A DNA stretch of 37,432 bases from a virus (Duplodnaviria > Heunggongvirae > Uroviricota > Caudoviricetes): the IMG/VR virus record IMGVR_UViG_2724679140_000013; one strand, 5' to 3'. Positions 1 to 16,204 of the stretch are shown here, in pieces (within the stretch, counting starts at the first letter, position 1; each line of letters begins with the position of its first letter). The notes beneath the pieces were generated by a model. That model searched no databases, was not told the origin of the DNA, and saw only the letters and a list, made by a program, of their open reading frames with translations. A program made the position numbers and the translations under genes.

Positions 1-1002
1 TTACCCTCTATTGTCAAAAGGGTTCAATTCAACAGCAGCCTCTAAATGACCTGGAGCAAAATGCGCATAACGCATAGTCATTTTTATATCGCTATGCCCC
101 AGTATTTTTTGCAACACAAGAATATTTCCGCCCCGCATCATAAAATGACTGGCAAACGTGTGACGTAGCACATGAGTTAATTGCCCATCAGGAAGCTCGA
201 TCTTCGCTCTCTTAATTGCAGCGTCAAAAGCCTCATAACATGGTGAAAATAGCGCTCCTCGTTTTTTAGGAAGCATAGCCTGCAATTGAGGTGAAATCGG
301 TACAGTGCGGTTCTTCTTTCCTTTAGTTTTGACAAATGTGATTCGACCGGGCAGTACTTGAGATTGTTTTAATCCTTCTGCTTCACTCCACCGAGCACCA
401 GTCGCAAGCCCAATACGAACAACAACCCCCAAATCTTTATTCCGTGACTCATCACACGCAATCAGAAGGCGTTCAATCTCATCTACATACAGAAACGCCA
501 GTTCCTTTTCTTCCTCACGAAACTTGCGAATACCAGTCAGGGGGTTTTCACCAGACCACTCTCCAAGGCGCTTCAGTTCGGCAAAAACAGCATGTAGATA
601 TGACTGCTCACGATTAACAGTTGCTTCACTAAGTTTCTTCTTCCCCTTTGGATTCCATTCACCTGATAATCGCCGCTCCCTGTAGGTGGCAAACATATTT
701 TTATCAAATTGAGAAGCAAACGGATCACCTAACCTAGAACAAATCGCCTCGAGTTTAGCCCTTCGCTCTTCACCGGAAGACAGTGTTTTACCGTACATAT
801 CAAACCAGCGAGCAACCAACTCGGAAAGGTGGGGGCCAGAATCATCCTGAAACTCGCTCCCCAAATTACTATTCATTAAACGGCGCTCATAAGAGAGCGC
901 CTCACCCTTAGTCGCAAACTGTTTACGAATACGCTTTCCCGATGCTCCATACGGGTAACACTCGCAAAGCCATTTACCAGTAGGTAGTCTTCGAACACTC
1001 AT
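1..1002 (-). CDS. int: tyrosine recombinase / phage integrase
   Basis: 333 aa; C-terminal catalytic region with HVLRHTFAS...LGHSDIKMTMRYAH (R-H-R-Y integrase signature); ATG at 1002, stop at 1-3. Confidence 0.9.
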   Translation of the reverse strand: MSVRRLPTGKWLCECYPYGASGKRIRKQFATKGEALSYERRLMNSNLGSEFQDDSGPHLSELVARWFDMYGKTLSSGEERRAKLEAICSRLGDPFASQFDKNMFATYRERRLSGEWNPKGKKKLSEATVNREQSYLHAVFAELKRLGEWSGENPLTGIRKFREEEKELAFLYVDEIERLLIACDESRNKDLGVVVRIGLATGARWSEAEGLKQSQVLPGRITFVKTKGKKNRTVPISPQLQAMLPKKRGALFSPCYEAFDAAIKRAKIELPDGQLTHVLRHTFASHFMMRGGNILVLQKILGHSDIKMTMRYAHFAPGHLEAAVELNPFDNRG

Positions 1003-3669: not shown

Positions 3670-3912
3670 ATGGGCAAAGAATATAAAACTCTCATTAACA
3701 AAGCACTTGAGCGTTTTTATTTTCGCTTAAGTGCATCAGGCGCTCATGCTGAACGTGCAGCCCGTGACTCATTGACCAGGGCAATCCGGAGTCTGTATGA
3801 CGTGGCTTTTTACGCTGATGATCTGGATGCACTTAACGAACTTTCCGAGCTGATCTGTGCCGCAGAATGCGGGGAACATATTGAACCGTATAAGCTGGGG
3901 AATATTGCATGA
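3670..3912 (+). CDS. hypothetical early protein
   Basis: 80 aa from ATG at 3670 (in-frame upstream ATG at 3619 overlaps previous gene). Confidence 0.45.
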   Translation: MGKEYKTLINKALERFYFRLSASGAHAERAARDSLTRAIRSLYDVAFYADDLDALNELSELICAAECGEHIEPYKLGNIA

Positions 3913-4022
3913 GTATATTTATCTCATGGCTTGTTCTGATTATTTCGGTGGCCTGCGCCATTGGGATTATGCGAATTATTCATTCAGTAAAAAAGATTGA
4001 ACGCTTTTTCACTGGCGAATAA
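3909..4022 (+). CDS. possible 37-aa single-TM membrane peptide
   Basis: ATG at 3909 overlaps upstream stop (ATGA coupling); translation MSIFISWLVLIISVACAIGIMRIIHSVKKIERFFTGE; below ORF-track size cutoff. Confidence 0.3.
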   Translation: MSIFISWLVLIISVACAIGIMRIIHSVKKIERFFTGE

Positions 4023-4108
4023 CAGAGCAAATAAAACCACAGGTTAAATAAGAAAATGTAAAAACAATCCGCATTCGCGGAGGTATTCGCACACGCCAAG
4101 GAGGCGTA

Positions 4109-4312
4109 ATGGCAATTAAGCATTTTCCTGTCGTTCGTTTTACCTCCAGAGGACGTGAATACGAAGTCGACGAACGCCTGATTACCACAATCGACAAACA
4201 CCGTTCAGAAAAGGATGCACATCACATCTATCTCACTGACGGCACTTACTTCTGCGCCACGAATGTGGTGCGGGTGAACCTTATCCGACAGGTACAGGAG
4301 TCACGCAGATGA
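4109..4312 (+). CDS. hypothetical early protein
   Basis: 67 aa; strong AAGGAGG SD upstream of ATG. Confidence 0.5.
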   Translation: MAIKHFPVVRFTSRGREYEVDERLITTIDKHRSEKDAHHIYLTDGTYFCATNVVRVNLIRQVQESRR

Positions 4313-4554
4313 CCATTCTGGACTATATCGCCGCCAATCCGGGGTGTAGCGGTGGAGAAATCGCCGCAGCACTGAATACCCCAACCACAGCCATTAATGC
4401 GGAGTTACGCCGACTCTGGCGCAGCGGTTCAGTCATAAGAAAAGAGCGCAAAACAGGCGGTCGCTTTTCTTACCAGATAAACCCGATGCCGTTCGGGTGC
4501 GGCAATCCACTTACCAACATGTTTAACCAGCTACTGAAGGAGGCCAGAGCATGA
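4309..4554 (+). CDS. hypothetical small protein, possible winged-helix DNA binder
   Basis: 81 aa; start overlaps upstream stop; GCSGGEIAAALNTPTTAINAELRRLWRSG resembles wHTH. Confidence 0.5.
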   Translation: MTILDYIAANPGCSGGEIAAALNTPTTAINAELRRLWRSGSVIRKERKTGGRFSYQINPMPFGCGNPLTNMFNQLLKEARA

Positions 4555-4850
4555 GCGCCATCAACCACCAGGAATTACGCGAACTGGCGATTGACCTGCA
4601 ACGAATGGCAACGCATCAAAAATTACTGGCGTTTCGCGCAATGCTCTCGCCGTCTGCCGTGCTGGCACTGCTGGATGAGCTGGAGCACGCCAGAACCATG
4701 TCTCCAGCCATTCGCCTGGCGCTCCATCATGAAATCGCTGATTTCTGCGCTCCACTGGGTTCGCCTGGTGAACCAGAAACGCCGGAAGCAATGCAACGAG
4801 AGCTACTGCAACGCATCGACAAGGTTTTTGATTTCTTCCTTAACCAGTAA
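4551..4850 (+). CDS. hypothetical early protein
   Basis: 99 aa; translationally coupled to upstream gene. Confidence 0.5.
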   Translation: MSAINHQELRELAIDLQRMATHQKLLAFRAMLSPSAVLALLDELEHARTMSPAIRLALHHEIADFCAPLGSPGEPETPEAMQRELLQRIDKVFDFFLNQ

Positions 4851-4861
4851 AGGACCGCGAT

Positions 4862-5065
4862 ATGAACAAAAAGACCTGGTTTCGCGCATACATGTGGGCG
4901 CTGGTATGCGTCCTCGTTTCTCTCATTCTGTATGCAGGACTACTCCCCCGAATGATTTCATCAGACAGCTCCTTCTTGGTATTGCTGGGCATTTTCATTG
5001 CCATGCTGTACCCGGCAGGCGTTGTTCGCCTTTTCAGTAAGTACATCAAGGAAATCAAACAATGA
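4862..5065 (+). CDS. small two-TM membrane protein, possible partner of downstream SPFH protein
   Basis: 67 aa; two hydrophobic helices (WALVCVLVSLILYAGLL and FLVLLGIFIAMLYPAGVV); stop overlaps start of next gene. Confidence 0.5.
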   Translation: MNKKTWFRAYMWALVCVLVSLILYAGLLPRMISSDSSFLVLLGIFIAMLYPAGVVRLFSKYIKEIKQ

Positions 5066-5892
5066 AGAAACTCAAACTCTTTCAGATTATCCCGCTTTTT
5101 GCCGCCATCCTGCTGGTTGGTTGCGATCGCGTTGAGCCAGGTAATGTGGGCATCAAAGTCAACAAACTGGGCGACGACAAAGGCGTCGGTGAAGTGGTTG
5201 GCGTTGGCCGCTACTGGACAGGCTGGAATACAGAGGTTTACATCTTCCCGACCTTCAAACAAATGAAGACCTACGATGAGCCGTTCAGCTTTCAGATGAG
5301 TGACGGCACAACCATCGGCTATCACATCGGTGTGGCCTACAAGGTTGATCCATCCAAAGTTACTACAGTGTTTCAGACCTACCGCAAAGGCGTGGACGAC
5401 ATTACCGACACTGACCTGCGCCAGAAGATCGCCGATGCACTCAACCGACTGGCCAGCAAAATGACCACCGATAAATTCATCGACGGTGGCAAGTCTGAAC
5501 TGCTGGATTCAGCACTTAAAGATATTCAGGAAGAGATGACCCCCATCGGTATTCAGGTCATGAGCCTCTCTTATGTCGGTAAACCGGAATATCCGCCAAC
5601 CGTTATCGACAGCATTAACGCCAAAGTCACGGCAAACCAGAAAACCCTGCAACGCGAACAGGAAGTCAAGCAACGCGAAGCAGAAGCCAACATGTTGCGC
5701 GCAGAAGCTGCCGGACAGGCTGATGCCATTCGCACAAAAGCCCAGGCTGAAGCCGACGCCATTCGTTTACGCGGTGAAGCTCTGCGCCAGAATCCCGGCG
5801 TTATGGAGCTGGAAGCAATCAACAAATGGAACGGCACGCTGCCGCAATACATGACCAGCAATACCGCTGTTCCGTTTGTTCCGGTGAAGTAA
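5062..5892 (+). CDS. SPFH/band-7 (HflC/prohibitin-like) domain lipoprotein
   Basis: 276 aa; lipobox LLVGC after signal peptide; SPFH-like core followed by Ala/Glu/Arg-rich coiled-coil (QREQEVKQREAEANMLRAEAAGQADAIRTKAQAEADAIRLRGEA) and C-terminal WNGTLP motif. Confidence 0.75.
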   Translation: MKKLKLFQIIPLFAAILLVGCDRVEPGNVGIKVNKLGDDKGVGEVVGVGRYWTGWNTEVYIFPTFKQMKTYDEPFSFQMSDGTTIGYHIGVAYKVDPSKVTTVFQTYRKGVDDITDTDLRQKIADALNRLASKMTTDKFIDGGKSELLDSALKDIQEEMTPIGIQVMSLSYVGKPEYPPTVIDSINAKVTANQKTLQREQEVKQREAEANMLRAEAAGQADAIRTKAQAEADAIRLRGEALRQNPGVMELEAINKWNGTLPQYMTSNTAVPFVPVK

Positions 5893-6057
5893 TTAAACCC
5901 GGCCAGTGAAAATCGCTGGCCGGAGCAGTATCAGGATTTTTTAGTATGCCGTTCTCACAAAAAAACCGCTTGCCATGCCGCAATCAGTCAGGTTACATTT
6001 CCGCTGCACCTCATAAAACGGGTGCCGGGATTGGAACCCCGCAGACTAACAGAGCGC

Positions 6058-6080
6058 ACAACCGCGCCAGCGGTTTTTTT
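6058..6080 (+). terminator. putative intrinsic terminator within the SPFH-to-A noncoding stretch
   Basis: short GC hairpin accgc-gcca-gcggt followed by T7 run. Confidence 0.4.
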
Positions 6081-6259
6081 GTGCGTACCGTATCGCCACG
6101 TCTTTTTCGCGTCAAAATTATGGTGGGGCGTACAGGGCCAGCATCAGCTGGGCCGGGTCCTCTGTTAGCCGGTAGTTCCAACCCTGTACGTCTCACCACC
6201 CCGAGCTTGGAACCTCTGGATGGTGAGTTTTCAAAACTGACTAACAGAGAGGCCACACC

Positions 6260-6487
6260 ATGGCAAACCGCAAACAGCGCGCATACGCTGCGCGTCGTCA
6301 CATCCAGACTGAAATCGACCGCAGACTTTCCCGCGCATTCCGCGTCGCTAAAATCATGCACATCAACATGCTGCATGAGCGTAGCTGCGAACTTTCAAAC
6401 CTCTACTCATCCGCTGTTTTCAGCTATCTGGCGGATGATCTGCGCGAGCTTCAACAGCTCATCCAGCAGCAAAACAAACTCCATTAA
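6260..6487 (+). CDS. hypothetical small basic protein
   Basis: 75 aa; GAGAGG SD upstream of ATG. Confidence 0.45.
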   Translation: MANRKQRAYAARRHIQTEIDRRLSRAFRVAKIMHINMLHERSCELSNLYSSAVFSYLADDLRELQQLIQQQNKLH

Positions 6488-6931: not shown

Positions 6932-9754
6932 ATGACGGCAGAGTACATCAGGGACTGGCAACAGCCGCGCCACGCAGTGGGACGTGAAGGAACGGGGATC
7001 CCCGTTCCTGAATCCGCGCTTTCCTCCTGGCTGGATGCCTACCGGGCAGAGAACGAGCGCCGCCAGGAAATGGCTGATGCGGCGTTCTCCGCCACGCCGC
7101 TGGGCAACCTGATTAATAAAAGCCTGGATGCACAGGAAAAACAGGACAAAACCATCACACTGGCAGGAGACGCCAGAAAACAGGTACGCGGTGCGGTGGA
7201 TGAAGCCATGGCCTCGCTGCGCCTGCTGCCGTCCTATCTGCGCGATCCGCTTATTCGCCACCTCTCCTTCCTGCGCAAAAAACAGGAAGCCGATCGCCGG
7301 AAAGGCAAAAAGAGCTGGCAGGCTGAACGCTACGCGCGCGGAACCCTGCGCAAAATATTCGAACGTCTGGACCGCACCGACCACCGCTGGCTGACACCGG
7401 GTTATCGCTCCCTTGCCGGACGCGAACGCCTGGATGATTTGCTTTACCTGCCGCAGCTCAACAAGCACCAGATACAGACGCTGGCCACCATGACGGCGGC
7501 GATGTTCAGCAGCACCTTCGAAAAACTCTGCGATGGCTTTGGCGCGACTGATGGCGAGCTGACCATGGAGGTAACGCTGAAGGCGTATCAGATGCTGGCC
7601 CGCATGGCGTTACACCTGCACGCCATGCCTCCGCATTATGACGCACTGACAACAGACAAAGACCGGAGGAACGAACCGGACACGGAGTTGCTGCCGGGCG
7701 CAATCCTTCGCCTGACCTGTGCGGAATGGTGGAAACGCAAACTGTGGCTGTTACGTTGCGAGTGGCGGGAAGAACAACTCCGCGCCGCCTGTCTGGTTTC
7801 CAGAAAAACATCGCCCTATCTGAGCCAGGACGCGTTAAGCGAGTTTCGAGCACAGCGCGAGAAAACACGCGATTTCCTGAAAAGTTTCATGCTGGAAAAC
7901 GAAGACGGGTTCACGATTGATCTCGAGACGGTGTATTACGCGGGAGTAAGTAATCCGGTTCATCGTAAGGCAGAAATGATGGCCACCATGAAGGGGCTGG
8001 AACTTCTGGCCGAAGCCCGTGGCGACAAAGCGGTGTTTCTGACTGTCACCTGCCCGTCAAAATACCACGCCACAACAGAGAACGGTCATCCGAATCCCAA
8101 ATGGAACGGGGCCACCATGCGCGACTCCAGCGATTACCTGGTTAACACGTTTTTTGCGGCGGTCCGCAAGAAACTGAACCGCGACGGCCTGCGCTGGTAT
8201 GGCATCCGCACGGTGGAGCCTCACCATGACGGCACCGTGCACTGGCATATGATGGTCTTTGCTCATCCGGAAGAAATCGACACCATTGTGTCCCACACCC
8301 GCGATATTGCCATTCAGGAAGATCGTCACGAGCTGGGTGATGATATTACCCCACGCTTTAAGGCGGAGTACGTCGACGGCTCAAAAGGCACACCGACCAG
8401 CTACATCGCCACCTACATCGGGAAAAACCTGGACAGCCGTGCCGTGGATGGCATCGACCCGAAAACGGGCAAGCCACGCGTTGACCACGAAACCGGAAAA
8501 TCAATGGCCGAGAGCGTGGAACGCGCCATCGGCTGGGCGCGCCTTCACCGGGTCCGCCAGTTCCAGTTCTTTGGTATCCCCTCCCGTCAGGTGTGGCGTG
8601 AACTGCGCCGCCTTGCCAGCCAGATGGCTCGCAACCCGGAAGGACCGCAACGGCTGAAGGATGACGCAATGGACGCGGTTCTTGCTTCCGCTGATGCCGG
8701 ATGTTTTGCCACCTACATAGAGAAACAGGGCGGCGTACTTGTTCCACGCAAGGACTACCTGATTCGCACCGCCTACGACCTCGCAGATGAGCTGAACGAT
8801 TACGGTGAACAGAGCGTACAGATTTACGGGATCTGGTCACCGCTCATCGGGGAGTCTTCCCGCGTATGCACGCATCCGGACAACTGGAAGCTGGTAAGAC
8901 GCAAACCGGAAGCGGAAGACAGCGCCCGCGAAAATGGTTTTGACCTTCAGGGCGGCCCTGCCGCCCCTTGGACTCGTGGCAATAACTGTCCCCGTATACA
9001 GGAAACGGGCAACAACGGGACAGAACAGCCGGAAGAACGGCCAGCACCGTGGCCGCAGCTTCCTGACGGCGTTGACGTGAATGAATGGATGCGCTCACTG
9101 AAACGGCACGAACACCGGGCGCTGATGCGTTCGCTGCGTGACAAACAGGCAAAAAACAGCAGTGATGAAATGCAGAACTGGACACAGAGCCGCAAACAGC
9201 CACAGCCTTTGCCTGATAACCACGAGTTACTCGCTAAAGAATGGCGGGAGTCTGCTGAATCTCTCGGCCTGCATATCGGTGAACAGCAGATGCAGCACCT
9301 GTTACGGGGCGGCAGTCTGTACGTTGACGGCAGCATCATTGCACCGCAGGGATTTGAAATTGTACGCAAACCGGATACCCGCCCGGACAGCCGAATCACG
9401 CAGCTCTGGCAGCGCCTGAGCCGTAACCACGGCGTAAGCAGCACGGAGATCCGCCATAACCCGGTCGCCAGCTATCTGGAACAGCTGGGGGCATCAGACC
9501 CCGAAGCCGCCGCACGCCTGGCATCCACACTTCAGCAAGACCAGAACACCATGAAAACACCCGTTACCGTGCTTTCTGACATGCTGCGCGCCATCCGCGA
9601 CGCAGAGCACGCACAGAGAATCAGTGAAACCACTGAACGCGCCCGCCGCAAAGCAGACCTGCTGCGGGGTGGCCTGACCAGTGGAAACAAAAAACAGACA
9701 GAAACGGGATTCACAAATCCCGTAAATGAGCAAAAAACGCGCCGCGATATATGA
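6932..9754 (+). CDS. A: rolling-circle replication initiator (P2 gpA family endonuclease)
   Basis: 940 aa; HUH-type motif EPHHDGTVHWHMMVFAHP and downstream tyrosine motif YIATYIGKN; last early gene as in P2; longer than P2 A (about 760 aa) through a C-terminal extension. Confidence 0.85.
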   Translation: MTAEYIRDWQQPRHAVGREGTGIPVPESALSSWLDAYRAENERRQEMADAAFSATPLGNLINKSLDAQEKQDKTITLAGDARKQVRGAVDEAMASLRLLPSYLRDPLIRHLSFLRKKQEADRRKGKKSWQAERYARGTLRKIFERLDRTDHRWLTPGYRSLAGRERLDDLLYLPQLNKHQIQTLATMTAAMFSSTFEKLCDGFGATDGELTMEVTLKAYQMLARMALHLHAMPPHYDALTTDKDRRNEPDTELLPGAILRLTCAEWWKRKLWLLRCEWREEQLRAACLVSRKTSPYLSQDALSEFRAQREKTRDFLKSFMLENEDGFTIDLETVYYAGVSNPVHRKAEMMATMKGLELLAEARGDKAVFLTVTCPSKYHATTENGHPNPKWNGATMRDSSDYLVNTFFAAVRKKLNRDGLRWYGIRTVEPHHDGTVHWHMMVFAHPEEIDTIVSHTRDIAIQEDRHELGDDITPRFKAEYVDGSKGTPTSYIATYIGKNLDSRAVDGIDPKTGKPRVDHETGKSMAESVERAIGWARLHRVRQFQFFGIPSRQVWRELRRLASQMARNPEGPQRLKDDAMDAVLASADAGCFATYIEKQGGVLVPRKDYLIRTAYDLADELNDYGEQSVQIYGIWSPLIGESSRVCTHPDNWKLVRRKPEAEDSARENGFDLQGGPAAPWTRGNNCPRIQETGNNGTEQPEERPAPWPQLPDGVDVNEWMRSLKRHEHRALMRSLRDKQAKNSSDEMQNWTQSRKQPQPLPDNHELLAKEWRESAESLGLHIGEQQMQHLLRGGSLYVDGSIIAPQGFEIVRKPDTRPDSRITQLWQRLSRNHGVSSTEIRHNPVASYLEQLGASDPEAAARLASTLQQDQNTMKTPVTVLSDMLRAIRDAEHAQRISETTERARRKADLLRGGLTSGNKKQTETGFTNPVNEQKTRRDI

Positions 9755-9830: not shown

Positions 9831-10790
9831 ATGAAAATTTGTATCGATGACGGCTCCACCAACATCAAGCTGGCATGGACTGAGAACGGCGAACGCCGCA
9901 ACGCCATCAGCCCGAACAGCTTCAAGTCGGAATGGTCTGCGCCGTTCGGTGGAACGCAGCCCGCAAACTACATGCTTGATGGCGTGCGCTATGGTTTTGA
10001 TCCGGTCAGCGATCGCTTTGTCCAGACGACCGACACGCAATACCAGTACAGCGATGTGAATGTCATTGCCATTCATCACGCGCTGGTCAAATCAGGCATC
10101 ACACCACAGGAAGTGGATGTGGTTGTCACCCTGCCACTGAGCGAATATTTCGACACCAACGCACAGCCGGACATGGCCAACATCAACCGCAAAAAAGCAA
10201 ACGTCATGCGCCCGGTGGCGTACCAGAACGGAAAAGCATTCACTATCCGTAACGTACGGGTTATGCCTGAATCCATTCCGGCTGGTTTTAAAGCACTGGC
10301 TGACATGAGTCCGTTTGAATCCCTGCTGATTGTGGATTTAGGCGGAACCACGCTGGATGTGGCAAAGGTTCAGGGACAACTGGCAGGTATCAGCCAGGTG
10401 TTTTGCGATCCACACGTAGGCGTTTCCCTGATGGCCGATGCCGTACTGTCGGTGATGGCCACTAACGGTATGCGTACCAGTCACCACATCGCCAATACCA
10501 TTATCGAACATCGCCATGATGAAGCCTGGCTGCGCCAGCACATCCACAATGACGCGCATTACGCCAGCCTGATGGCGGTTATTCGTGAAAAGGAAGAAAC
10601 ACTGAAACAACGCGTGATCCGCGCGCTGGCGGGTTTTTCGGGTTACGGGCGGGTGATGGTTGTCGGTGGAGGGGCGGAGATTGTGGCACCCGCTATCCGC
10701 GAAGCCTGCGGAGTTAATGCGACTTTCATCGCGGACGGGGTGCCACAGTTTGCTCTGGTTAACGGGCTGTACGCAATGGACAAGGAGTAA
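9831..10790 (+). CDS. parM: ParM/StbA-type actin-like partition ATPase
   Basis: 319 aa; N-terminus MKICIDDGSTNIKLAW and motifs YSDVNVIAIHHAL, IVDLGGTTLD, VMVVGGGAEI closely resemble plasmid R1 ParM as I recall it. Confidence 0.85.
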   Translation: MKICIDDGSTNIKLAWTENGERRNAISPNSFKSEWSAPFGGTQPANYMLDGVRYGFDPVSDRFVQTTDTQYQYSDVNVIAIHHALVKSGITPQEVDVVVTLPLSEYFDTNAQPDMANINRKKANVMRPVAYQNGKAFTIRNVRVMPESIPAGFKALADMSPFESLLIVDLGGTTLDVAKVQGQLAGISQVFCDPHVGVSLMADAVLSVMATNGMRTSHHIANTIIEHRHDEAWLRQHIHNDAHYASLMAVIREKEETLKQRVIRALAGFSGYGRVMVVGGGAEIVAPAIREACGVNATFIADGVPQFALVNGLYAMDKE

Positions 10791-10794
10791 ACCA

Positions 10795-11109
10795 ATGACG
10801 ACACCAACCAGACGGATAAGTTTCTATCTGAAGCCAGCTGCAGTCAAGAGTGAACGGGAAGCGTGTAATTATCTCGACAGCCTGCCAGCCTCCGAACGCA
10901 GCCGCGCGCAACGCGCGGCATTTCTGGCTGGACTGGCACTCATTAAAAACGATCCTGCCTTTGCTTACTGGCTGGCTGAATGGTCAGAGGGGGAAAATAT
11001 GCCTGCCAACAATCACATATGGGGCTGGCATAACAGCGAGCCTGTTGGTTGCAAAAATCAGAATATAAGTCAAATAAAAAAGAATATTCAGGAATTTTTT
11101 CCTGAATGA
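10795..11109 (+). CDS. parR: ParR-like partition adaptor/repressor
   Basis: 104 aa from ATG at 10795 (AGGAG SD 7 nt upstream); RRISFYLKP...LDSLPASERSRAQRAAFLAGLALIKNDP resembles R1 ParR N-terminal RHH region; directly downstream of parM. Confidence 0.75.
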   Translation: MTTPTRRISFYLKPAAVKSEREACNYLDSLPASERSRAQRAAFLAGLALIKNDPAFAYWLAEWSEGENMPANNHIWGWHNSEPVGCKNQNISQIKKNIQEFFPE

Positions 11110-11113
11110 TCAC

Positions 11114-11140
11114 AAAAAGCATGGCTTTCGCCATGCTTTT
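11114..11140. terminator. intrinsic terminator after parR
   Basis: hairpin agcatggc-tttc-gccatgct flanked by A run upstream and T run downstream. Confidence 0.6.
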
Positions 11141-11429
11141 AAATATCAAATATCAGCTTCGCACTAGAAACGCCCAAGCTTTCCAGCCATACTCATGAGC
11201 ATCCAGCTTTCGACCAGAATCACCACGAACCTTACGGTATCGGCAAAACTGCCAACGAAATCCTTTCGGAGCCGGTTTTTTTACAATTGATTTCAAAGCC
11301 ATCCATAATCACCTCCTTACTGAGAATGATTTTTACCTTGATTATCTGCCTGGATTGACTAGAATCACAGTTGTACATGCAAAACATCAAGGTGATGATA
11401 TTTCTCAGACTATCATTCCTTTGTGTTGA

Positions 11430-11465
11430 AAAGCCCCTGACGGTTGGCCCCGTCAGGGGCTTAAT
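11430..11465. terminator. intrinsic terminator downstream of antitoxin gene (bidirectional potential)
   Basis: 10-bp GC-rich stem cccctgacgg / ccgtcagggg with flanking A/T runs. Confidence 0.6.
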
Positions 11466-11467
11466 AT

Positions 11468-11785
11468 TTATGCAACCTGACAGGAATGTTCTGCCGTCGC
11501 AGTAACAACCCCACCGGAATACCCAAACTTAAAATCCCACCCCAGGATGTTTAGCATGATAAACAGTCGATCAATGGTATGATTATCTAACTTACCATTA
11601 ATGATTTCGCTTACTCTTGGTTGGGTTGTTTCCAGCAATTCAGCAGCTTCTCGCTGGGTAAGACCGCGCTCCTGAATCATTTTTCGGATAATAACCATTA
11701 ATTGGGCCCGGATGTGTTTATCACTAGCTTCATTTACAGAGCTACTTGATGACGCATAAGGGTTTTTGACTACGACGAATTCCAT
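11468..11785 (-). CDS. HTH (XRE-type) antitoxin, HigA-like
   Basis: 105 aa; HTH GLTQREAAELLETTQPRVSEIINGK; directly downstream of the toxin gene. Confidence 0.75.
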   Translation of the reverse strand: MEFVVVKNPYASSSSSVNEASDKHIRAQLMVIIRKMIQERGLTQREAAELLETTQPRVSEIINGKLDNHTIDRLFIMLNILGWDFKFGYSGGVVTATAEHSCQVA

Positions 11786-11855
11786 AACTCTCCAGCCTTA
11801 ATCAGCGATGTTGCTGACATTGATTATGTTATATCAGATTTGAGATACCTGCAAG

Positions 11856-12257
11856 CTATCTTAAGCCATTTTTACGACGATACTCCACTAATTGTTTGTA
11901 TCTTGCGGCAGCTGTCTCATATTCTTTTTTTGACACACCATTTGTCTTTTTCTTAAATGTATGAAGTATGTAAACAGACTCCGCAAATTTCGCAACGTAA
12001 ATCATACGATAAGAATCACTACTCTTGATGGTTAATTGCATTGCGTAGCGACCAATCGTTTCCCGCATTGATTTTTTTTGAGCAGGTGGAACCCCCAAGG
12101 CATCATCACCATCCACTGGAAAATCGAAACTGTCGAAAGAATGAGGACAATCGCTCTGCAGTGCAACAAGCTCAAAATTTATCCTTTCTCGAACAGCTTC
12201 AGGATAACTATCAATTTGTTTCTGAATTTTATCATTCCAATATGTGATGTCTTTCAC
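11856..12257 (-). CDS. RelE/HigB-superfamily toxin (Gp49-like)
   Basis: 133 aa; C-terminal signature YRMIYVAKFAESVYILHTFKKKTNGVSKKEYETAAARYK typical of Gp49/HigB-like toxins; GTG start with GAGAGG SD. Confidence 0.75.
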   Translation of the reverse strand: MKDITYWNDKIQKQIDSYPEAVRERINFELVALQSDCPHSFDSFDFPVDGDDALGVPPAQKKSMRETIGRYAMQLTIKSSDSYRMIYVAKFAESVYILHTFKKKTNGVSKKEYETAAARYKQLVEYRRKNGLR

Positions 12258-12349
12258 TCAGAACCTCTCACCAACGTAACCGAACGAAATTATACAAAGA
12301 TCTTTTTTTCGCTTAAATACATCCACTGAACGTTGATTTTAATGCAAGA

Positions 12350-12369
12350 TTGTGCACAAATTTGCACAA
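12350..12369. promoter_or_regulatory. candidate operator of TA operon
   Basis: ttgtgcacaaatttgcacaa: TGCACAA repeated at 10-bp spacing with partial dyad symmetry, about 95 bp upstream of toxin start. Confidence 0.4.
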
Positions 12370-12867
12370 TTTTTTTGAACGACTTTTTGCCCTTCCGGCC
12401 CGCGTGGCGGCTGGATCCGCCAAGGATCCGTGCGTGCACAAAAAAACGCGTTTTTTCTGCGCGCAGGTGACGGGGGAACAGCCCGCGTTTCAGGGGGTAA
12501 ATAGCATTCCCTGAACGATGTCGCAGCGACACAACAGAATGGCTGTATCGCTCACGCTGAGCGTGAAAAATACGTAAGGGGTTCTGATTTGATGGGGTGA
12601 AAGGTAAGGCCGTCAAATCGCAATGAGACGGCGAGAACATGCTGTCAGCTCGATGGGATTGCGTAAGAGTCTGGCCATCGATGATGGCGATAAGTTGGAA
12701 GACGTCGTGAAATTATCTGATTGATACGGGAGCTGGAGAGTCGGGGCATAAATTTTTTATGCCCCGGCGAAGCAGCAGACAAGCGAAGCGCGTCAGTGAT
12801 GCGGCACCTTGCCGACCACACTCCATAAGTGCAAAATACGAGCAAAGAAATCAATGGAGGCTGTTTT

Positions 12868-13392
12868 ATGGTCATTAATTACAAGCAGTTACGAGAAAAA
12901 CGAGAGCAGGTAAAGGAAAGTTTTCGCCGCAATGAAGATCTGACCCCGCTTGTACACCTTGCCCAGGGAATTGTTGATGCTTATGAAATCTCTCTGGAGC
13001 TGCCATCACAGACATGGACGGATAGCGACGGTAATCGCCAGCATTACGTTTCATGCGGACTGGAAACAACTGAAGGGTTTCGCAGAATGCCTTTATCTCA
13101 GATTCCTGCCGCTACCCCCAAAGCAAGGGGCGGCAATGATGAGCGAAAACTGATTTTTAGCATTGAGACAGTGGTTGACGACACACCTGGCGAAGTCGCG
13201 TTCGTGCATACTCCTCTTTCGATCGCAATGTATAACGATGAAATACAGGTTCGCGTTAATAATAATATCGTGCCACTTAAAGAAGGTAATTCACCCTACA
13301 CCACCGTTTGTGAAGCCATTCAATATTACGTTCTCTCTGAAATTGATAATCTCAAGCCTGACGGCACCCAGAAAATGGTTCAACTCTGGTAA
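12868..13392 (+). CDS. hypothetical protein, accessory gene next to portal
   Basis: 174 aa from ATG at 12868 with GGAGG SD 7 nt upstream; followed by intrinsic terminator; no family recognised. Confidence 0.55.
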   Translation: MVINYKQLREKREQVKESFRRNEDLTPLVHLAQGIVDAYEISLELPSQTWTDSDGNRQHYVSCGLETTEGFRRMPLSQIPAATPKARGGNDERKLIFSIETVVDDTPGEVAFVHTPLSIAMYNDEIQVRVNNNIVPLKEGNSPYTTVCEAIQYYVLSEIDNLKPDGTQKMVQLW

Positions 13393-13397
13393 TAAGG

Positions 13398-13425
13398 ACA
13401 GCCCCATCACGGGGCTGTTTTTTCA
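13398..13425 (+). terminator. intrinsic terminator
   Basis: hairpin cagcccc-atcac-ggggctg followed by T6; overlaps last codons of portal gene on opposite strand. Confidence 0.55.
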
Positions 13426-14453
13426 TCAAGAAGTGCATAAGAGTTAAAACGGATCACCTCTTCGCCAAGCCAGTCATTGATGTGCTTCATGGCCTCCATG
13501 ACGGGCATCAGCTCGTTAATTGCGTAAACCCGCGCGGCCTTCTCCACATCACCAAACGCACTTTTTTCACCCGGCATCGCCCCCATCAGTTGCGGCGGAA
13601 CGCGGTGCGCAGCCAGCACATCATCACGGGATGCCGCCTTAACATTCATGAACTCATCCTTTGCGGTGATCTGCTGGAACGGCAAAATTTGCACCCCCTC
13701 TTTGCCCCCGTTGGGCGCATGAATGAGCACGTTTTTAAACGCACCACCACCACGTGCCCCCTGTAGCGTTTCTTTCAGGGAGTCCATGCTTTCGCGGTTT
13801 ACCTGCGCTGCACCGATGTAGATGATGCACCCGGCGTGGGATCCGTTGTCGTAATACAGTTTTCTGAACATGTCCGCCGAATGAGACAGGCTGGCCGAGA
13901 GTAATGCGCCAAGATATTCCGGCATGCCGTAAATTTCCTGGTTAATGTCAGGATTCATCAGGTGGCACACTTTACCAGGGCGAAACTGAAACGCATCCTT
14001 GCCATCCTGCACATACCACCATGATTCAAGATCGCTTCCGCGTCGCATGTATTTCGCCAGGGCGTGCCGTAATTTAAGCGGTTCGCCGAGCATATTGCTC
14101 CGAAGCTCAAGGAATGCGTTACCGAACACAAACCAGTCCAGCGCCAGCGCCGAGAAATCCTGCCGGGAAAGCAGCGGGTGCGGAATGTAGCAACCGAGCA
14201 ATACATTACGCTTAAAGTAAAGCGCAGACTGATGCCAGGACGTTTGCCGGGCAGCTCTTGCCAGACCGTACCAGTCCACCGGGGTTTCATACCACCGCCC
14301 GTTATCAGCACAGTACATGTTGTCCAGCAGGTCATGCCCGGTCAGGCGATAAGGACCATCAAATGTGAATGCACTGAGCGATGATTCTTTCCTGAGCGCA
14401 TCAGCGAGATCAATGCGTGAACTCATGCGCACTTTTTTATTTTTTCTGCTCAT
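13407..14453 (-). CDS. Q: portal protein (P2 gpQ family)
   Basis: 348 aa; length and sequence character match P2 Q; immediately downstream of terminase gene with overlapping stop/start. Confidence 0.9.
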   Translation of the reverse strand: MSRKNKKVRMSSRIDLADALRKESSLSAFTFDGPYRLTGHDLLDNMYCADNGRWYETPVDWYGLARAARQTSWHQSALYFKRNVLLGCYIPHPLLSRQDFSALALDWFVFGNAFLELRSNMLGEPLKLRHALAKYMRRGSDLESWWYVQDGKDAFQFRPGKVCHLMNPDINQEIYGMPEYLGALLSASLSHSADMFRKLYYDNGSHAGCIIYIGAAQVNRESMDSLKETLQGARGGGAFKNVLIHAPNGGKEGVQILPFQQITAKDEFMNVKAASRDDVLAAHRVPPQLMGAMPGEKSAFGDVEKAARVYAINELMPVMEAMKHINDWLGEEVIRFNSYALLDEKTAP

Positions 14454-16204
14454 CAGAACTCCATAACCGTGAAACGCTCGTTTTCTCCTTCGCCGCCAAT
14501 CGGTTCGTTAATGACAGCAAGCATGGTTGCCCACGCAAGGTCGCCGTGGCTGATCCCCCTCGCGCGGTCCGTTTCGTAAGTGATAAAGCCGCCCGGTGTT
14601 TTCACCTTACGCACGGCGTTAAAGGCCGCGACCAGCTCGCGTTCGGCGCGATCGTATTCCCACCGCCCGGCACGCATTATTTGCAGCATTTTCAGTACCA
14701 GCGACCGTTTTGATGACAGCGTGAAGGTGTACGGAATAGCAGCAGGGAAAAACCGTTTCACTATCTGATAAACAGCCTCCCCGTTCCCGCCCGTCACATC
14801 AATGCCGATGTGTTCCACGTTGTAGCGACACGTGAACTCTTCAATGACTCTGGCCTGTTCTTCAAACTCCAGCCCCTGAACGCGTCGCGTCTCCACCGTT
14901 CGAAAACGGCCTCCAGGAACAGCCGGAGGAACCACTACGGACACAGCGCCGCTGTCGCCGTTTCCACTGCTGCCGTTTGCGTCATACCCAATCCATACCG
15001 GACGATTCCCCATCGGGCGGGGAGCAAAAGGTTTCCAGTCTTTCCAGTCGTCGTATCCGTCAACACCGCAGCCAATCAGTATATTCAGGTTAAATGCCGA
15101 TTCCCCTTCGCGGACAAACTCACACATATAGAGATTGCGGAACTCGTCTTCGGTGTTTTCATCACGAATTTCGTCAATATCGGTGTGTTTCCAGCCGTGA
15201 TTAACCACATCTTCCAGCGTGACAATTTGCCGCCACGTCCGGTCAGGGCAGATAAGCCCGTTATGCAGCGTTTTCCAGTCCACAGAAAAACGCTGACGTT
15301 TATGCGTGGCCTTTTTCTCGTTCCAGCGGTCGCCGTTCCAGTAGGCGTATGCCTCGTGCGTTTCGGTGGATGGCGTGGAGAAGTAGGTGCGCCGCAGTCC
15401 GCTGAGGGTTGCCATAGCGCCAGCCACCTTGCGCAGTTCAGCAAAGCGACTGACCCAGAAAAATTCATCAAAATAAAAATTGCCCGTGTAGGACTGTGCC
15501 GTCGCAGCAGAAGTACCAAGAAAATGCAGCTCTGCGCCGTTGGAGAGGATGATTTTATCGCCCCCTTTCAGCTCCACATCAACTTCAGATGCAGCCTTCT
15601 GAATAATGCTTTTAAACTGGAACGCCTGACGACGCGACGCAGACAAAAAAATCTGGTTACGCTGGTAAGGTTGCGCCACATCGTCACGCAGCGCCATCAG
15701 CAGTGCTTCCTGTGCAAAATACCAGGTCGCCCCAATCTGTCGGGATTTCAGGATCATCCTGTTACGTATCCCGGCTTCACTGCAAAGGGTCAGGGAGTCA
15801 AACCAGCCCCGCTGATGCCACTCCAGCCTGCTGATGATTTTTTCCCGCAGTGCGGCAATCTGCTCCGGCGTGAAATGATTTTTAAGTTTTTTCGCCCGGC
15901 CTTTCTTTCCTGTGGCCGTCACATCCGGCTGGCCATCATGCAGTTTTTTAAGCTGCCGGGTCAGCAGGTCTATTTCCTTAAAGTCACCGCCTGTTTTATT
16001 CTGTTTTTCAGTAAGCTGGATGAGGCGCGCATCGATGGACTGCGTGACACGCTGCACGGGTGGCGTTTCATCCCACTGGTCGCGTTTTTTCCACGCATAA
16101 ATCGTGTTCGGGTTTATTCCCATCAGACGTGATATTTCTGCGGGCGGATAACCCTGCCAGTAAAGTTGCCGCGCACGCTGGCGCACAAAAGCGTCCTGAA
16201 TCAT
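14453..16204 (-). CDS. P: terminase large (ATPase) subunit (P2 gpP family)
   Basis: 583 aa; divergent from O-N-M-L operon as in P2. Confidence 0.9.
   Translation of the reverse strand: MIQDAFVRQRARQLYWQGYPPAEISRLMGINPNTIYAWKKRDQWDETPPVQRVTQSIDARLIQLTEKQNKTGGDFKEIDLLTRQLKKLHDGQPDVTATGKKGRAKKLKNHFTPEQIAALREKIISRLEWHQRGWFDSLTLCSEAGIRNRMILKSRQIGATWYFAQEALLMALRDDVAQPYQRNQIFLSASRRQAFQFKSIIQKAASEVDVELKGGDKIILSNGAELHFLGTSAATAQSYTGNFYFDEFFWVSRFAELRKVAGAMATLSGLRRTYFSTPSTETHEAYAYWNGDRWNEKKATHKRQRFSVDWKTLHNGLICPDRTWRQIVTLEDVVNHGWKHTDIDEIRDENTEDEFRNLYMCEFVREGESAFNLNILIGCGVDGYDDWKDWKPFAPRPMGNRPVWIGYDANGSSGNGDSGAVSVVVPPAVPGGRFRTVETRRVQGLEFEEQARVIEEFTCRYNVEHIGIDVTGGNGEAVYQIVKRFFPAAIPYTFTLSSKRSLVLKMLQIMRAGRWEYDRAERELVAAFNAVRKVKTPGGFITYETDRARGISHGDLAWATMLAVINEPIGGEGENERFTVMEF

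Follow-up and report, generated by a model that had tools for sequence, protein, structure and literature searches.

A mobile single-gene cassette of family PHROG 5091, very probably a moron, beside the portal gene of an E. coli P2-family prophage

The DNA analysed here (the window, 37,432 nucleotides in all) is an E. coli P2-family prophage of the P88 type (genus Xuanwuvirus), and the features that concern us are collected in Table 1. Beyond the terminase gene P follow the scaffold gene O, the capsid gene N and the remaining late genes. ORF174, the gene under study, lies between the accessory region behind gpA and the portal gene Q.

Table 1. Features of the P88-type prophage around ORF174 (positions in the window).
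Feature	Position	Strand	Remarks
Integrase	1-1002	-	
gpA	6932-9754		
ParM (StbA)/StbB partition pair	9831-11109		Right after gpA
Gp49/RelE-like toxin and HTH pair	11468-12257	-	PF05973, E 3e-13; HTH_37 antitoxin-like
Conserved non-coding block	12330..12801	.	Between variable cargo and cassette
Strong hairpin GGGGCATAAATTTTTTATGCCCC	12740..12768	.	-21.5 kcal/mol, z = -4.9
630-bp insertion cassette	12802..13431	.	Putative promoter, Shine-Dalgarno, ORF174, terminator, last 5 portal codons
Putative weak sigma-70 promoter TTGCCG-17 nt-CAAAAT	12809..12837	+	8/12 consensus positions
Shine-Dalgarno GGAGG	12856..12860	+	7 nt before ATG; read from sequence
ORF174	12868..13392	+	174 aa, 19.8 kDa, pI 5.0, PHROG 5091
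Intrinsic terminator of ORF174	13394..13424	+	Hairpin 13394-13422, then T-run
Portal gene Q	13407..14453	-	Convergent neighbour of ORF174
Terminase P	14453-16204	-	

A preliminary description of this DNA had presented ORF174 as an open reading frame with a GGAGG Shine-Dalgarno sequence, and this was borne out by the dN/dS values and by the Shine-Dalgarno sequence and start codon that are common to the homologues. The gene opens with ATG at 12868 and closes with TAA at 13390-13392. The ORF listing also offers a longer frame of 187 aa from GTG 12829, but on comparison with the family the true start is ATG 12868, because all homologues start M-V/T-I-N/T-Y there (their N-termini read MVINY or MTITY) and because it is the sole start with a Shine-Dalgarno sequence. 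GGAG is unchanged throughout the alignment of the regions upstream of ORF174 and its relatives, and a strong Shine-Dalgarno sequence precedes every family copy scanned (n = 19). Pairwise dN/dS is 0.06-0.09 among the E. coli alleles of ORF174 and 0.17-0.19 between the Salmonella and Trabulsiella copies, and values from 0.06 to 0.19 indicate that ORF174 is a real gene under purifying selection. A spurious or decaying frame without function could be considered, since a few genomes contain truncated or fused copies (45-74% coverage, for example P0011-P0017); in ETEC H10407 (NC_017633, 2142392-2142779) the copy is cut to 74% coverage. Such incomplete copies indicate occasional decay of the cassette. 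As an account of ORF174 itself, however, we hold the spurious-frame reading to be refuted by the selection and conservation data, with a probability close to nil, in view of the low dN/dS, the 88 mostly full-length clusters, the pLDDT of 83 for the predicted structure, and the conserved Shine-Dalgarno sequence and terminator.

The gene has its own intrinsic terminator, as had been proposed, in the form of a hairpin (-18.8 kcal/mol, z = -6.2 against shuffles, GC core at 13398-13418) that is followed by a T-run; a consensus scan missed it, and it was picked up by a separate scan for hairpins with T-runs. The loop of this hairpin contains the portal stop codon (13407-13409, minus strand). In the Salmonella copies the pairing is preserved via compensatory changes, and a hairpin with a T-run occurs within 90 nt downstream in 15 of the 19 family copies. 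On the other side of the gene, 31 nt before the ATG, the motif TTGCCG-17-CAAAAT can be taken as a putative promoter, weak by consensus and scoring under the threshold of the consensus scan. TTGNCN-17-CAAAAT is also present 31-34 nt before the ATG in the Salmonella copies, where the upstream DNA has otherwise diverged; across the family, promoter scores are not clearly above background, and none stands out in the distant homologues. That a terminator follows nearly every copy, even inside late operons, suggests solo transcription in the lysogen. ORF174 would then be transcribed alone in the lysogen while the neighbouring late genes are silent, and its promoter would be weak and constitutive, as with P2 old, tin and fun. 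Expression from the prophage is in our judgement somewhat favoured, although most copies outside the P2 group are co-oriented with late genes, so that late lytic expression fits too.

The place of the gene is best seen against close relatives. Compared with E. coli EC21Z-048 (L003), the window shows 98% identity on both sides, as far as 12801 and from 13432 onwards, and the 630-bp cassette takes the place of 17 bp; EC21Z-048 shares the toxin-HTH pair and the non-coding block with the window and is without ORF174. In the record of P2 itself, cosL occupies 1-19, the terminator tQ 160-181 and Q 187-1221, and the interval from cosL to Q contains no gene. The two proposals of the preliminary description, that a gene had been inserted between the accessory region and the portal gene and that P2 has only cos-proximal sequence next to Q, are thus both upheld, the former by the near-identical phages as well as by P2. 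ORF174 is carried by 396 of 5426 complete E. coli genomes (about 7%). The empty junction was used as a query, for which a match in one piece denotes an empty site and a match in two pieces about 614 bp further apart denotes an occupied one. About 1070 E. coli records have both flanks, and they divide into about 396 occupied and about 670 empty, roughly 1:2, so that the mapping of presence and absence in related prophages that had been suggested puts the cassette in about one third of P88-like sites and leaves about two thirds empty. The junction query found no third allele at the portal-side site in these approximately 1070 records, which marks the site, as far as these genomes represent it, as one with two states rather than a swap site for many alleles. 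Among isolated phages, PhiR44_2, vB_EcoM-705R2 and vB_EcoM-569R5 carry ORF174, and P88 and P88_4B11 are without it at the site. Since these last two are viable without the gene, ORF174 appears to be dispensable for phage growth.

In composition the cassette departs from its surroundings, with a GC content of 45.9% against 51.6% for the whole window. ORF174 has a GC of 45.5% and a GC3 of 43%, compared with 53-58% and 63-69% for gpA, ParM and the capsid gene, a low value that is not extreme, as 18% of 525-nt windows are as low. The boundary of the cassette falls inside the portal gene (13407-13431), and the portal protein ends in ...LLDEKTAP when the cassette is present and in ...LLDTQPTS when it is absent, the last five residues being EKTAP in the one case and TQPTS in the other, at equal length.

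Rousset et al. (2022, PMC9122126) documented the interval between gpA and gpQ as a hotspot for anti-phage cargo. The earlier statement that the A-to-Q interval is a known variable region therefore stands as regards the interval, but not as regards ORF174, which is found outside the hypervariable cargo as a separate two-state insertion. Cargo between StbB and the non-coding block varies independently of the cassette, the alternatives being the toxin-HTH pair in the window, DUF4760 with a hypothetical gene in ST131, a 90-aa hypothetical gene in O111 and Ead/Ea22 in M8. The toxin/HTH_37 pair at 11468-12257 is thus the variable gpA-side hotspot cargo of the window prophage; it also occurs without ORF174, and in EC21Z-048 it bears the RefSeq label of a type II toxin-antitoxin system. 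About one in four P2-like phages was noted to have ParM/StbB (Rousset et al. 2022, PMC9122126), and in a chromosomal P2-family prophage the pair may permit plasmid maintenance. Table S5 of the same study gives WP_000236495, WP_001407222 and WP_000236489 as 'hypothetical' in gpA-gpQ gene arrangements; the ORF174 accessions occur in that table only and are absent from the tables of tested systems (PMC9122126).

The non-coding block that separates this cargo from the cassette is 91-98% conserved among phages with differing cargo and probably holds the cos packaging site. The GenBank record of P88_4B11 (LR595891) begins at window position 12388, inside the block, and this position may be a cohesive end. 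A candidate cos core is a 67-bp island (about 12733-12799) with the hairpin of 12740-12768 and GGCGAAGCAGCAGACAAGC, which a diverged P2-like prophage retains at 94% conservation; where the site is empty, this hairpin lies about 35 nt past the portal stop, as read from EC21Z-048. Either candidate, the position 12388 or the island, would put ORF174 on the portal side of cos. The P2 cohesive-end sequence GGCGAGGCGGGGAAAGCAC (a 19-mer) has no match in the window at up to 3 mismatches, and BLAST of P2 positions 1-200 against 12290-12870 returned nothing significant; the cos of the window phage is therefore not P2-like in sequence. The diverged prophage is that of E. coli E7-1N7 (L045, 7001-7067), whose portal gene is not DNA-similar, and an Ogr/Delta-like zinc-finger gene lies there between the island and the portal gene, so that the slot from cos to Q would hold a gene in this second case as well. 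A search of 11000-13600 against Rfam returned only two sub-threshold chance matches. One is to the His operon leader (11425-11562, minus strand; 28.6 bits against a gathering threshold of 49, E 0.056), probably by chance, and a 13-bp GC-rich terminator-like hairpin at 11431-11462 overlaps it.

The preliminary description had recognised no family for the product. This holds for Pfam and NCBIfam, in which the ORF174 protein has no match, and for PADLOC-DB v2, where 0 families reached E <= 1; it does not hold for PHROGs, in which the protein is catalogued as a member of PHROG 5091 (E = 6.8e-67, residues 1-168 against positions 1-164 of the 164 in the profile), a phage protein family whose annotated function is unknown. 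An exhaustive profile search gathered homologues in 88 representative clusters, mostly of 155-175 aa and matching over their full length, and 64 of 64 aligned relatives match PHROG 5091. Pfam searches with these 64 relatives gave only scattered single matches above E 0.003. Close relatives occur in E. coli, Salmonella (62% identity) and Trabulsiella (46%) and are all named 'hypothetical', as are the members of the other clusters in their sources, apart from one obviously mislabelled 'integrase'. Literature searches by accession number, PHROG id or genus name returned no paper on the protein. Near-invariant positions in the family are Y39, S42, L43, L45, W50, G55, Y60, V61, F97 and T101, with D104/D105, C148 and K/Q152 frequent.

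The ORF174 product is a soluble, acidic protein (pI 5.0, net charge -7, with a family median pI of 5.1), and neither a hydrophobic or transmembrane segment nor a signal peptide was found in it. AlphaFold, run on the 64-sequence alignment, gave a model with a pLDDT of 83 and a pTM of 0.71, whose predicted layout is alpha2-beta8-alpha: a helical hairpin, an eight-stranded antiparallel sheet and a C-terminal helix. Carrying out the Foldseek comparison that had been recommended, we obtained no significant relative of this model in the PDB (best E 0.39) or in BFVD (best E 0.023, to an uncharacterised protein at a TM of 0.25). Matches of residues 125-169 to de novo designed helical-repeat proteins in the PDB (E 4.7e-10) appeared with a narrow profile of 9 sequences (A1) and were gone with the 64-sequence profile; they are therefore set aside as an artefact, probably of the shallow profile. 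Nor was there significant sequence or fold similarity to characterised anti-defence proteins (Acr, DNA mimics, DarA-type). A soluble acidic alpha/beta product of about 20 kDa without a catalytic motif would act stoichiometrically, by binding a protein or a small ligand; binding is the most likely mode given that no catalytic signature is present.

Relatives of ORF174 are spread over several kinds of phage and several kinds of site. In the Salmonella P2-like phages, which carry the 62% identical copy, the gene is likewise convergent with the portal gene, 15-33 bp apart, and these phages lack ParM and have different cargo, while in Trabulsiella the homologue comes right after gpA, ahead of HicAB and Phd-Fic modules. 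Distant homologues, at 25-33% identity, occur in quite different temperate phages. Five loci have the homologue between the tail assembly chaperone and the tape measure gene, and three, one of them in phage CharmingMan, have it between antiterminator Q and holin; elsewhere it separates baseplate hub from wedge, or Ant from a tail-fibre gene, or follows Rz. The CharmingMan copy stands among TerB/TciB-like morons in the Q-holin interval. Neighbours differ in every context, with no conserved partner gene. Among 50,697 phage records, PHROG 5091 relatives turned up in one lambdoid and four P88-like phages only, and the virulent phages of this collection yielded no member of the family.

The constant place beside Q in the E. 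coli and Salmonella P2-like phages, together with the homologues between tail genes in another phage group, could suggest an accessory packaging or virion protein that is tied to cos or to the portal. The chaperone-tape-measure junction, which inspired the structural reading in particular, was compared in 15 related viral contigs: 7 have nothing inserted there, 4 carry the homologue and the other 4 carry different small cargo, so the structural reading was rejected there, and the family is accessory at that junction too. In the Xenorhabdus-type myovirus group (L031-L033 and L042, about 3900-6400) this junction is a small variable site, with a putative lipoprotein of 158-163 aa, or short paired ORFs (an 'MKFEEL...' protein of about 65-120 aa and a convergent one of about 95 aa), as the alternative cargo. 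Further evidence against a packaging or virion protein comes from the absence of ORF174 from two thirds of near-identical prophages, from P88 and P88_4B11 and from P2, from the homologues in lysis and regulatory regions and after gpA in Trabulsiella, from its being one of several alternative cargoes at the tail junction, and from the lack of a match to any structural PHROG or Pfam family. Clear homology to a conserved structural or packaging protein of P2-like phages, which the preliminary description had named as the finding that would overturn its view, was not found. The presence/absence data largely refute a packaging or virion role, and we consider it highly improbable.

What these comparisons support is that ORF174 is a moron. 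Insertion between sequences that are adjacent in close relatives, by which morons are recognised, is seen in the exchange of the cassette for 17 bp in EC21Z-048 and at the chaperone-tape-measure junction as well, and the gene also has the terminator of its own and the deviating composition that are expected of morons. On the comparative evidence ORF174 is a moron and not a structural or packaging gene, and its identification as an accessory moron is one that we make with high confidence. Taken together, the genome comparisons establish it as a self-contained, dispensable and horizontally mobile one-gene cassette.

The role of the product is a separate matter. We hypothesise that it would be made from the prophage and would exclude or interfere with other phages or mobile elements, a conflict role that is favoured because of the location in a hotspot of such functions (PMC9122126). 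An anti-phage or host-interaction role, as first proposed, is a guess from that location, and against it stand the absence of a PADLOC match and of any structural relative. Most known superinfection-exclusion proteins are membrane proteins, and the ORF174 protein is cytoplasmic, which argues against exclusion. Defence or exclusion specifically is hence put forward tentatively, as a possibility that we rate below an even chance.

A different form of conflict, counter-defence, would have the ORF174 product counter an immune system of the host, whether as a protein inhibitor or by sequestering an immune signalling molecule. A small, acidic, soluble and non-enzymatic single-gene module that moves between phages is compatible with this, as is the near-invariance of Y39, S42, W50, G55, Y60, F97, T101 and D104/D105 at 25% identity, which would fit a ligand or target, and most copies are oriented like the late or lysis genes around them. 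However, the family is missing from virulent phages in the searched collection, no Aca-like regulator is adjacent, a net charge of -7 is quite unlike that of a DNA mimic, and a terminator directly after the gene in late operons is more easily explained by expression in the lysogen. We consider counter-defence rather unlikely, a little more so than defence or exclusion.

Lysogenic conversion outside phage conflict, in which the gene would benefit the lysogen through host physiology, stress tolerance or virulence, could also be considered. It is compatible with the moron architecture, with the restriction to temperate phages, with the TerB/TciB-like morons around the CharmingMan copy and with the frequency of the gene in the pathogenic lineages ST131, O111 and O145. 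At the same time, the protein has no signal peptide or membrane segment and no similarity to known effectors or toxins, and commensal and environmental strains carry the gene too, so that we regard lysogenic conversion as improbable. The best explanation overall is then a mobile PHROG 5091 moron that directly abuts the portal gene at its 3' end, with a conflict function expressed from the prophage as the preferred role, an explanation to which we give about an even chance.

If the product blocks phages or disarms a host defence, a compact family of 174-aa proteins with an unfamiliar fold would join the toolkit of the arms race between phages and bacteria, and relatives within PHROG 5091 are already widespread in clinical E. 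coli lineages. P2-family phages would also have a portal-side insertion slot by the conserved block, the probable cos, apart from the hotspot on the gpA side. The broadest form of the proposal is that PHROG 5091 is a new family of single-protein immunity or counter-immunity factors, one whose fold has no solved or annotated relative, which travels as a self-contained cassette among temperate Enterobacterales phages and is carried by about 7% of complete E. coli genomes, ST131 among them, and that there is a second P2-family insertion slot, between cos and the portal gene, that is distinct from the gpA-side hotspot; we offer this with some reserve, as a proposal somewhat short of an even chance. 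For the present, ORF174 is of use as a well-delimited candidate, with natural carrier and non-carrier strains, for the hotspot screens already under way, and interest in it should be moderate to low until a phenotype exists.

Several known systems resemble ORF174. With the morons described by Hendrix and Juhala, such as lambda bor and lom and the cargo of the Q-holin interval, it shares the arrangement of a single gene between otherwise adjacent sequences, as well as the terminator of its own, the atypical GC, the dispensability and the presence of relatives at standard moron sites. It differs from lambda Bor and Lom in that its product is cytoplasmic and not of the envelope, and in that its putative promoter is only a weak, conserved match to the consensus. 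The genes old, tin and fun(Z) of P2 are non-essential exclusion genes of the P2 family that are expressed from the prophage; like them, ORF174 is apparently non-essential, lies in or beside the gpA-cos-gpQ interval, has a terminator and a putative promoter of its own and is variable among relatives. Unlike old and tin, which are on the gpA side of cos, it probably lies on the portal side, which is geneless in P2, and the comparison of proteins gave no kinship, with an hhalign probability below 1% against P2 Tin and Orf91 and no Old-like match in PADLOC. The cargo of the gpA-gpQ hotspot (Rousset et al. 2022, PMC9122126) has its position between gpA and gpQ and its entries in Table S5 in common with ORF174, which differs from it as a two-state insertion beside Q that co-occurs with several cargoes. 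From PHROG 5091 there is no difference, as ORF174 is a member of this family. ORF174 is thus one more uncharacterised phage moron, of a kind already known and in a known hotspot interval of P2.
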